Below, piece by piece: positions 39,001 to 42,000 of a DNA stretch of 57,885 nt. Numbering within the stretch: position 1 is the stretch's first letter; each line of letters opens with the position of its first letter. Where the stretch lies: contig JAYNIA010000010.1 of the NCBI GenBank assembly GCA_038108555.1, forward strand, positions 1 through 57,885, given 5' to 3'. Position numbers: made by a program. Source of the stretch: Nitrospinota bacterium. GTDB taxonomy: Bacteria; Nitrospinota; Nitrospinia; Nitrospinales; VA-1.

Positions 39001-42000
39001 GTTCGTCTACCAGAAGAATCGGCACATGCGCGAAAAGTTTCATGTACCGGGTAGCGATCATGTTAGAAGCAGACATGGAAATGCCGTTCGTAATCAACCT
39101 TTTGGCCGACGGATCCAACACTCCATATTCATCCTTAAACACCGCGACCGTATCGGATAAACCTTCCTCAAAATAAATCAGTTTATTGATGTTCCTTTTT
39201 CCCGCGCTATCGCGCATAAAAAATGTATTCAACAAGTCGTTGGGAATCGACACATTAATGAAAAGAATCAGCGCAACAAATATGACCGTCATTCCCTTCC
39301 TTACTGCTGGTGTTAAATAGTCCCCGGTGCGGAATAGAAGGACCATGGTAAAGAAATTTATCGTTGCCAGCAGGGTAAGGCTGGCTTGGCTTCCAAAGTG
39401 CGGCAGGAATAGGAAACCGGAAAAAAGGGCGCCGAAAATGGCACCCAGGGTATTGGCGGCATAAATCTGGCCGGTTGATTGTCCTAAATTTTCCTGTTTA
39501 TTCGAAATAAGCTGAATAAGCAGGGGAAAACACATTCCCAAAAGTAGAGTGGGAACCAGCATGAGGCCTGCAGAATCCCTAAAATAAATCCAGAAAGCAA
39601 CAACCGGATTTCCAAGGTTGTAAGCATTCCAGGGTGGGGAAAGAATAGACTCTATTTCATAAATAGAGCCGATGATATAAATCCCCACGCCCCCTTGCAA
39701 TGCAATGAGGATAGAACGCAAATTGGTTATTTTGGATAAAAGTGGAATCAGCAACAAACTTCCCAGAAAAATTCCCATTAAGAAAACAGTGAGCATCATG
39801 CTAAATGAATAAACGGTGCTGGCGATACTGAAGACCAATAGTCGGGTCCATAAAACTTCATAGGCAAGGGCGGTGAAACCACAAATGAAACTGATTCCCA
39901 TCCAGAATTTTTGTTCGCGACTCAAACTCATAGAGGGAATTTTAATTTTCGGAAGTTTAAATTCGATCTTTTCCCCATTTTCTTTATAGATGCTCAACGC
40001 GCTAATGCCAATCAACAGGTTTCCTGCAGCAGCCATTAAAACGGTTTGCAAAACCCCAAAAGTACCCATCAAAAAGAATCCGGTTATCAAACAACCCAAG
40101 GCCGCACCCAGAGTGTTGAGGGCGTAAAGGAGGCTAACCTGAGTTCCTATTCTATTGTCCTGAGTAACGCAGTATTTGCTGATGAGGGGCAGAGTGGCTC
40201 CCATAAATGTTGTGGGTACCAACATCAGGGTGAATGAAAAAATAATTTTTATTAAATTTTGTAGTGTCGGGGATTCAGGAATAAAACTATGAAATAGGGA
40301 ATAGAAATCGGCAAAATTTGCAAACAGTAGTGAGAGAAGAGCTCCACTGGCAAAAATCAATATTTCAATCCAACCATAAAAATGAAGGGCGGTCGAAGAA
40401 TCTGTATTTTGTAATGAAAGCCTGTCGATCGCATAGCCAAAGAGATAGCTGCCAAAACCCAGCCCCGCCATGAAGGCCGCCAGAACTACTGAGACCGAAA
40501 AAACGGTATGCCCGAAAACAAGGGTGAGCATTCGGGTCCATACAATTTCATAAATCAGGGCCGTAATCCCCGATACAAAAAACAAAAAATATACTATTGG
40601 AGAACGCTGCATTTTTGAGATTTATAGGTTCAAAACCGATTTGGATAATCCGCGAAGAATTTCCAATCCGTTGCTTTAATAAAGTCTACCTCTATTCCAA
40701 TGAAATGCCCGGCAAACCCTTAAATTAATTGACAATGGCTCAAGCTTCAAGTAATTTTTATATATACCTGACTTTTTTAACAATTTTTGACTGAAGGTTC
40801 TTGTAATGGGGACACCAGAAATAAAGATTGCAGATGCCGACCACCCCTACGCTAAGGAAAATGGGGTTGTTTGGGCTGAAGAGGCCTGGGAAAGGGTCAA
40901 ACATGCACCTGAATTTGTTCGCCCGGGGATTCGAAAACTTATGGTCCAGCGCTGCGTAAAACGTGGATATAAAATTGTTACCTCCGATTTTCTGACAGAA
41001 ATCCGCAATGAATCCATGATGTTGGTTTCAAAAAGGGTCAAAGGTTTTGGTTTTGAAGAGTTGACTATGGATGCTTTTGATGTGGCTAAAGAAAAAATGC
41101 GGGAAAGTCCCCGAAAGGTTGAGGTGATTGAAGAGATCGAAGACTTCCTTTCGATGCGAACAGAGAAAAAAGACGACATCGTAGAAAAATTCAAGAACTA
41201 TATGGAAGTGACCCCCACATCGGGAATCCCCTGGAGTAAGGAAGCCAAGGAAAAAATGGAAAAAGTGCCTCCTTTTGTTTTAGGTATGGCAAAGCAAACC
41301 ATCGAAGGCCGGGCCAGGGAAAGAGGTGACAAAATGATTACGCCCGATATCATTGATGAAGTATTTACCAATATTATGCCGGCTTCCGCAAAGCAGGCCA
41401 TGGGAATGGAAATTACCGAGGAAGACCTTAAGCAGGATGAAGTAATTGAAAAGCAGAAAGAAGAACCGGTTGAGGTTTCCCTGAAATGGGAAGATGATGC
41501 TTTGGAAAAGGTTTCCAAAATTCCTATTCCCTTTATCAGAAATATGGCTGTAAAACGAATCGAGCAGGAAGTCACCAAGGCAGGTGAAGATGTGGTGACA
41601 ATGGAATTGTTCGAAAAATATCGTTTTACTTTTTAAGCGTGTAATTACTCCTCTTTTCCCGAAGCTAATTTTTGTAATTCGCTCCAGAGTTCTTTTCTAC
41701 CCGTATTATTTTTACTGGAGTAGGTGACGGCTGCCAGTGCATTTTCCCCCATAAAAGCAGATTTAATTATTTTTGTTTGTTTGCTGCGTTCCGTTCCCGA
41801 CAGTTTGTCCGATTTTGTAATTACCAGAATATAATTCCTTCCCATGTCTTCCAGCCATTCTTTTAAAGTCAGGTCCAGCTCTGTGGGCTTGCGGCGGATA
41901 TCGACGATGAATACGATTGCCATGAGGGGTTTCCGATGAATCAAATATTCCTCGATCATCTGTTTCCATTTTTTTTGCATGGCCGGAGTGACCCTTGCAA

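Follow-up and report, generated by a model that had tools for sequence, protein, structure and literature searches.

The Nitrospinales encode five otherwise unrelated proteins that carry one or more copies of the PCP_red domain (PF08369), and we propose, giving the idea about an even chance of being right, that these form a cytoplasmic system for finishing haem and handing it on, with PCP_red as its assembly tag. Two of the five are related to the two known types of coprohaem decarboxylase, and one of these, a fusion of PCP_red to ChdC, is on sequence grounds a probable candidate for the terminal haem enzyme of the order. The Nitrospinales are the ocean's main nitrite oxidisers and rely on haem-rich electron chains, yet how they complete haem and which cofactor their bd-like oxidases carry have so far gone unstudied. 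The fusion thus names a probable terminal enzyme, labelled chlorite dismutase or PCP reductase family protein in public records, and the shared domain ties it to a paralogue of AhbD, a dedicated Mrp ATPase and a histidine-rich Usp protein. If the proposal is true, PF08369, so far known from structures, gains a role outside photosynthesis. The parts of the set belong to known families, and their combination is undescribed in the literature searched, which covered few subscription papers. A 2026 review gives as open how haem in bacteria travels from the enzyme that completes it to the proteins that use it (PMC13564367).

In the proposed scheme HemE, HemY and HemH would lead to coprohaem, which the peroxide-dependent PCP_red-ChdC would convert to haem b, and the PCP-tagged radical SAM protein would act on a coprohaem-type substrate independently of oxygen, either as a dedicated second route or as a tailoring step. 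The dedicated Mrp and its four-Cys PCP partner would load or maintain the radical SAM protein's three Fe-S clusters, the histidine-rich, ATP-binding tandem Usp would hold haem (or a metal) for hand-off, and the product of g01154, which has no catalytic residues, could be a multivalent scaffold. PCP_red, with its three-helix, AAA+ lid fold, would gather the members, and haem would be delivered to membrane respiratory proteins such as the bd-like and haem-copper oxidase modules. The scheme draws on the architectures and their conservation across the order, on operons, fusions and oxidase or hemY neighbours, and on the ChdC active-site residues, the separate radical SAM clade and the invariant Usp histidines; from these we infer the binding steps, the substrate of the radical SAM protein and the roles of Mrp, Usp and g01154, and that the scattered Nitrospinales genes may still act together.

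The window gene and the PCP_red complement of the order

The window, which is the whole 57,885-bp stretch of DNA analysed, contains g01154 (40806–41636, forward strand), encoding a 276-aa protein with three PF08369 stretches in a PCP-X-PCP-PCP arrangement that scores 107.7 bits against PF08369 (cut-off 32.5). All of its parts lie on the forward strand: PCP_red unit 1 (40872–41003), the most conserved region; a helical insert, here called the X module (41004–41210, residues ~67–135), which is conserved among the homologues; and PCP_red units 2 (41232–41360) and 3 (41487–41618). The survey's finding had described a stand-alone repeat protein, and the three repeats are there, but the conserved insert has to be added to that description. 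The gene stands alone here, between a divergent gene for a spermidine-synthase-like membrane protein and a convergent gene for an EngB-type GTPase; a promoter and terminator scan gives four promoter-like sites against 2.1 expected and is uninformative. Across 35 aligned rows the invariant positions are confined to unit 1 (A27, R30, P35, F37, V38, G41, I42 and K44) and the insert. No conserved catalytic or metal-binding residues are found in the alignment, in which the single Cys is not conserved.

Orthologues of g01154 are present in 103 of 120 genomes of the phylum at E < 1e-40, and in 112 at a looser 1e-8, nine of these being cross-matches or fragments. Inside the order they are 72–95% identical, which reproduces the 73–95% of the survey, and the homologues carry the NCBI names Nitrospina and Nitrospinaceae. 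Shorter orthologues from other orders of the phylum have a two-unit form that is missing unit 3, and the Nitrospirales orthologue has four units with the insert at the end. An AlphaFold model of the window protein (mean pLDDT 73, pTM 0.35) has three units, each a short strand plus three helices, with the insert poorly placed (pLDDT ~50). The best structural matches of the units are 2KRU and 2L09 (Z 8.6 and 8.2; for the former score, rmsd 4.0 over 62 aligned residues), followed at Z 5–7, a range that the tool calls common, by AAA+ ATPase lids and by small lid-like domains that stand alone. A Foldseek search with the whole model returns nothing at E 0.001, and the ESM Atlas returns PCP_red clusters only.

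The two best matches are also the nearest known relatives, PCP_red of DPOR subunit B (2KRU) and Nostoc Asr4154 (2L09), and PF08369 is reported to have been studied by NMR. As in DPOR, PCP_red here sits on a tetrapyrrole enzyme in a system that includes a P-loop Fe-S ATPase; unlike in DPOR, nitrogenase-like subunits are missing, the domain occurs in one to five tandem copies on five unrelated hosts, and no chlorophyll pathway is implied. Oxidored_nitro subunits (DPOR BchL/N/B) are found in none of five genomes tested, this one included, in keeping with the survey, and the full-length BchB models reach just 52–78 bits against cut-offs of 490–509; a role in chlorophyll synthesis is rejected, since there is no DPOR.

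This bin has eight PCP_red matches in four ORFs: three in g01154 (contig C10), three in a Usp-Usp-PCP-CxxC..CxxC-PCP-PCP protein (C23), one in a radical SAM-SPASM-PCP protein (C39) and one in a CxxC..CxxC-PCP protein encoded directly after an Mrp ATPase (C70). The domain has no conserved His or Cys. It is present in all 61 order genomes searched versus one of 14 control genomes, which agrees with its reported occurrence across the order. Exactly nine matches are present in 43 of the 61, and the ninth domain is the start of the PCP_red-ChdC fusion, so that the four architectures of the survey become five. As the survey had it, the tagged genes are unlinked: the nearest pair lies 57 kb apart in G026 and 75 kb in G027 (radical SAM positions in G005 and G010, guessed from frame length, are left out), and the ChdC fusion comes close to the Mrp pair in G013 (1.3 kb) and G059 (7 kb) only.

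Two relatives of the coprohaem decarboxylases

PCP_red-ChdC is 315–322 aa long, with PCP_red at the N-terminus and PF06778 as the remainder. It is matched in 87 of 101 order genomes and in 48 of the 51 of high quality, and in 84 of the 87 the alignment spans the PCP part into the enzyme part; the 14 genomes in which it is missing include three of high quality and a single-contig one (86% complete). In all four near-complete genomes it is the main PF06778 gene. HemE, HemH and HemY are encoded in all five genomes tested, and HemF, HemN over cut-off and AhbA/B in none of them (four are 98% complete), matching the survey's account of the haem genes. Its further conclusion that the route lacks ChdC is rejected, and its own caveat, that the gene could be missing from an incomplete bin, proves apt. 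In G057, of the same genus, the fusion follows phoB and phoR and precedes a block of genes with orthologues in the bin; in the bin C78 breaks off within phoR, the syntenic block that should come next starts from the end of C38, and neither phoB nor the fusion is present, placing the loss in the assembly gap between the two contigs. With ChdC as the fifth PCP_red protein, the radical SAM protein is not required to complete the route, and the earlier suggestion that an AhbD fusion closes it does not stand. The haem link as such comes out firmer than the survey's argument made it.

The best PDB matches of PCP_red-ChdC are coprohaem decarboxylases (E 5e-27). The residues diagnostic of ChdC and Cld, including the loop His of the actinobacterial enzymes, are taken from PMC7611857, as excerpted. 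The G057 protein has Tyr220, Lys224 and His243 in the places of the catalytic Tyr, the propionate 4 Lys/Arg and the proximal His, and by alignment also Arg288 and Ser293 (propionate 2) and the loop His202. Y-P-F-x-K and E-H are present in all 13 fused ChdC rows, and the Arg-x4-Ser pattern in seven of eight Nitrospinales rows and none of five from Nitrospirae. In these residues, and in the company of HemE, HemY and HemH, the fusion resembles ChdC (HemQ); it differs by its N-terminal PCP_red, by Phe268 at the position of Trp183 of the Corynebacterium diphtheriae enzyme, and by scores below the NCBIfam HemQ cut-offs (142.7 of 235 and 85.1 of 253 bits). The untagged protein of Nitrospirales scores alike on these models. 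Chlorite dismutase is rejected as an identity, with Leu255 and Tyr220 standing in place of the distal Arg and Ile (compared with a Cld-type row, L132).

A second group of PCP-ChdC fusions is found in Nitrospirae (23 clusters), and all 13 fused rows form one branch of a quick tree (SH-aLRT 96), so that a single origin is possible and the ChdC fusion is counted once. Most Nitrospirota have an untagged ChdC; in three Rhodothermales/Bacteroidota genomes (completeness not given) ChdC is not detected. No report of a PCP_red-ChdC fusion is present in the literature searched; a HemH-ChdC fusion is known (PMC13564367, as excerpted).

The tagged radical SAM protein appears from its sequence to be a paralogue of AhbD with a clade of its own. 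AhbD and NirJ2 (TIGR04545 and TIGR04055) are its best models, and the C39 protein has the full cysteine pattern of Methanosarcina barkeri AhbD (C29/33/36 and C238–C349), given in the excerpt of PMC10452713 as CX3CX2C and CX20-33CX17CX36-37CX2CX5CX2CX17-35C, the latter being the eight-Cys SPASM motif. It scores 308 bits against the TIGR04545 cut-off of 500, however, with 298–345 bits for six tagged proteins and 330 and 332 for two more, and it further differs from AhbD in its C-terminal PCP_red, in the absence of AhbA/B and in coexisting with true AhbD. In a quick tree of the catalytic core (34 Nitrospirota rows out of 128 rows in all dropped at random; AhbC and NirJ not included), 55 tagged rows are separated from 30 over-cut-off AhbD rows by a branch with SH-aLRT 99. 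Four genomes (G119, G157, G159 and G199, all of G119's phylum) have the tagged protein and an over-cut-off AhbD together, and it is also kept beside HemF in G109 and G113 and HemN in G114, where ChdC is not detected (completeness not given). Its low score, separate clade and coexistence with AhbD, HemF or HemN together argue for a paralogue; of the survey's AhbD-like fusion, the radical SAM-SPASM-PCP_red architecture stands and the AhbD identity does not.

Mrp, Usp and the gathering of the set in other lineages

The C70 Mrp (PF10609, 229 bits) shares with Mrp/NBP35/ApbC an intact deviant Walker A (KGGVGKS), DxD and ENM motifs and a C-terminal CPxC. It differs from the canonical proteins in having no FeS_assembly_P and in falling short on the ApbC and MrpORP models (157 of 348 and 233 of 450 bits), in an N-terminal helix and insert of its own, and in its four-Cys PCP partner. 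The genome has two further Mrp paralogues, one canonical and separate. Orthologues are present in 88 of 102 order genomes, and at a strict E 1e-70 the phylum's other orders yield none. The small PCP gene adjoins Mrp in all eight order loci covering both, confirming the pairing noted in the survey; a predicted complex of the small PCP protein with the Mrp dimer, ATP and 4Fe-4S included, scored 0.03 (mark 0.32), which is telling neither way on binding.

Within the window, at 56042–56476 on the forward strand (true start probably ~56102), lies a gene for a small hydrophobic protein with no PCP_red, recognised by an HMM of its own (E 3.5e-13). Its homologues directly precede the g01154 orthologue in other orders and lie just before Mrp in operons elsewhere; they have no Pfam family, and the ESM Atlas gives unnamed clusters only. 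This protein is probably a sixth, untagged member of the set.

The C23 Usp protein has two Usp domains and rubredoxin-like four-Cys inserts. The Usp ATP-binding motif is G-2x-G-9x-G-S/T, and it is present in 108 of 113 sequences in one domain and 84 of 113 in the other. Its model (pLDDT 89) has the tandem fold of Rv2623 (Z 26.7, rmsd 3.5 over 276 aligned residues). Fold and motif are shared with the tandem Usps Rv2623 and TTHA0350, from which the PCP-tagged protein differs by long His-rich helical inserts, by its PCP and rubredoxin-like tails and by being constitutive in one proteome (see below). In the 113 sequences H37, H44, H72, H215, H306 and M51 are invariant, with H243 at 99% and H258 at 96%; six histidines are thus kept in 99–100%, with equal spacing in both domains (H44–H72 and H215–H243). 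The histidines lie on the inserted helices of the model, and their invariance suggests a ligand site, which may hold haem or a metal.

In Nitrospinales the Usp gene is followed by msbA, oleA and oleB, with msbA between the Usp gene and oleAB in 11 of 12 loci with enough sequence; one locus with msbA ends before oleA. The oleAB genes are thus downstream as the survey described, but the Usp gene does not head them directly. A functional link to olefin synthesis is rejected, given the intervening msbA and the other neighbours in every other lineage; the arrangement is a lineage-specific local synteny.

Elsewhere the unlinked genes of Nitrospinales come together. Among the best 80 of 384 confirmed Usp-PCP loci, Usp-PCP lies immediately before the PCP-tagged radical SAM gene in 50 of the 52 Nitrospirota-labelled loci with room. 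Near-complete or complete sets in one run are found in Rhodothermales/Bacteroidota (L107, L116 and L117), Tectomicrobia (L102 and L429) and metagenome loci; in all five named loci Mrp and its partner are joined to the Usp and radical SAM operon, and the g01154 orthologue lies within such operons in L088 and L196. Some operon counts take in one unpublished genome (G110, L108), on which no claim rests. A search with the pattern of the Mrp subfamily returned 120 stretches of metagenome DNA, of which 80 had flanks: the small PCP gene follows Mrp in 35 of 52 loci with room, and 20 loci of at least 8 kb include PCP_red in 18, a radical SAM gene in 16, Usp in 14 and the four-Cys partner in 12. The modules are also exchanged between proteins. 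The X module, which always comes immediately after a PCP unit, forms the C-terminal part of a radical SAM fusion (P0198, which has the PCP-plus-insert module of g01154 with 38% identity over 119 aa) and of a Usp fusion with the same module (P0251), and P0187 joins an Mrp fragment to the small PCP protein; these are single database proteins from three organisms, known as protein records alone. Co-location and fusion in other lineages thus back the survey's central claim that PCP_red is a shared module linking these proteins, on firmer evidence than the survey had.

Genes for bd-like or haem-copper oxidases accompany the set in 11 of the 17 loci from non-nitrifier genomes and in 12 of the 19 metagenome loci that span at least 8 kb, or 23 of 36 long loci with and 13 without, as raw counts that have no background control and in which kin are not independent. 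A two-PCP gene lies inside the bd-like oxidase cluster of Nitrospirales, and hemY adjoins the tagged radical SAM gene in L365, L370 and L225.

Proteins that match members of the set by name, length and neighbouring id are recorded in the Nitrospira marina proteome (PMC8115632, supplement 4, in the part consulted). Spectral counts are 97–132 for the 699-aa UspA and 18–44 for the 460-aa SPASM radical SAM protein of the next gene, 13–43 for a 306-aa ATPase beside a 257-aa 'proto-chlorophyllide reductase subunit' (45–53), 9–20 and 3–9 for PCP proteins of 328 and 159 aa, and 43–57 for a 235-aa 'chlorite dismutase'. In these data no matched protein rises at low oxygen: counts of the radical SAM protein drop, and the abundant 699-aa Usp is unchanged in this one condition while four other UspA proteins rose. 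Likely orthologues of the set are thus made constitutively in N. marina.

Alternative readings of the PCP_red domain

The survey had favoured Fe-S delivery or redox signalling as the common purpose. As an Fe-S delivery tag, PCP_red would mark the clients of the dedicated Mrp, much as in DPOR the BchB domain is close to BchL, an Fe-S ATPase; in the 2013 DPOR transition-state paper the PCP domain reportedly contacts the L protein or covers the site of the substrate. The intact P-loop and CPxC of Mrp, the small PCP gene so often next to it, the full SPASM motif of the radical SAM protein and the Fe-S proteins among other hosts (NIR_SIR-Fer4 and nitrogenase-like subunits) all favour this, as do the salt bridges that bind BchL to BchB in the excerpt of PMC12022308, where the PCP domain is not named. 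The fit is nevertheless poor, since the genome's 48 radical SAM matches include only one with the tag and ChdC carries no Fe-S cluster; the lone Cys of g01154 and the two additional Mrp paralogues also count against it, and we consider this reading possible but unlikely. A regulatory module, with the ATP-binding Usp as a sensor of energy or redox state that switches the haem enzymes through PCP contacts and with no hand-over, would account for the Rv2623-like fold, the ATP motif and the rubredoxin-like inserts. The N. marina proteome gives redox signalling no support, with the tagged Usp flat at low oxygen as other UspA proteins climb, and the invariant histidines point instead to a ligand, which makes such a switch rather doubtful.

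The radical SAM protein might alternatively be a plain oxygen-independent AhbD of the coproporphyrin-dependent pathway, the rest of the set being accessory. AhbD and ChdC are already known to occur side by side, and AhbD is published from bacteria of this pathway that have no other Ahb genes (PMC13564367, as excerpted); the best models, the SPASM motif and the three hemY neighbours are as expected. The separate clade in the quick tree, the four genomes with a second, over-cut-off AhbD, its retention with HemF or HemN where ChdC is not detected, and the falling N. marina counts nonetheless make this very unlikely. A speculative variant, to which we assign a low probability, is that the tagged enzyme turns coprohaem or haem b into another, undescribed haem, which the PCP-tagged set (the Usp carrier, the Mrp ATPase, the scaffold and the small membrane protein) would insert into bd-like oxidases, whose function has been called enigmatic (PMC3578206). 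This would explain why the radical SAM gene is kept by oxidase genes despite AhbD, ChdC, HemF or HemN. That PCP_red is simply a mobile helical domain, gained separately by five genes with no common process, is suggested by the unlinked genes of this order and the many unrelated hosts, but several phyla have four of the five genes in operons, the fusions are interchangeable, and 43 of 61 order genomes keep exactly the same number of copies, which renders it highly improbable.

The preferred reading, a haem-centred set gathered by PCP_red, concerns this order, and the domain itself has a wider range. PCP_red is present in 42 of 151 genomes of G119's phylum, and among 24 hand-picked proteins there its other hosts are MFS transporters, DUF169, NIR_SIR-ferredoxin proteins and nitrogenase-like subunits near a chelatase. 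Tetrapyrrole handling is common to BchB, ChdC and the AhbD paralogue and probably extends to the NIR_SIR and nitrogenase-like hosts, and Fe-S as a common feature fits these bar ChdC; MFS fits neither theme, so that PCP_red is most plausibly a general interaction module, strongly biased towards tetrapyrrole and Fe-S enzymes.

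Genes accompanying the PCP set in other genomes

Several further genes travel with members of the PCP set in the loci of other genomes. Proteins resembling haem oxygenase (PF14518) are encoded at L320:2195-3625, L140:8428-9189 and L145:7472-8170; in one of these genomes the protein is a fusion that also contains a rubredoxin-like domain and three PCP units, and in the two others its gene adjoins the Mrp partner gene. In another locus the radical SAM gene and the Usp gene flank one for a 266-aa protein (L107:7889-8689), for which Pfam and NCBIfam gave no match and a search of the bin found no counterpart. 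By eye its sequence hints at a split-barrel fold; the Usp protein P0219 includes a fused segment of similar sequence. Of the 80 Usp loci (the best 80 of 384 confirmed), 34 have a small CopD-like membrane gene (e.g. L081:6416-6934), which is positioned 3' of the radical SAM gene in the loci inspected. At L091:8177-12031 a B12-binding radical SAM protein and the Usp-PCP protein occupy a single frame; since the next gene is split as well, this arrangement could stem from misassembly.

Other hosts of the PCP_red domain

PCP_red also occurs on hosts outside this set, as typed from 24 hand-picked proteins. Nitrogenase-like proteins carry it at their C-termini (L416:1369-10576, L417 and L144); they are found in genomes of the phylum of genome G119, where two lie near a CbiX/ferrochelatase-like gene, and a Rubrobacteraceae genome encodes a pair of them. 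The most frequent host in the G119 phylum is a PCP-NIR_SIR-ferredoxin protein of ~265 aa (L380-L409 and L423-L425). MFS transporters (L414, L415 and L419) and DUF169 proteins (L421 and L422) likewise have a C-terminal PCP_red.

Surroundings of the window gene and related genes in the bin

The sequence TTGACA, followed by a 17-base gap and a weak -10-like hexamer (40729-40757, + strand), lies 50 bases upstream of the window gene and is absent from the sites listed by the promoter scan. Four consecutive leftwards-transcribed cytochrome c genes (43629-49935, - strand) encode proteins of 153 aa, 215 aa (two haems), 925 aa and 807 aa, the last two with numerous CxxCH motifs. A small hydrophobic protein without a Pfam family (56042-56476, + strand) is homologous to the product of a gene accompanying the PCP set elsewhere; its gene adjoins tyrS, 14 kb from the window gene.

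Elsewhere in the bin, C18:23663-24565 encodes the third of the Mrp-like ATPases, a 300-aa protein that shares 40% identity with the PCP-linked Mrp, and an msbA-oleA-oleB run (C23:8600-12289) is kept across Nitrospinales.
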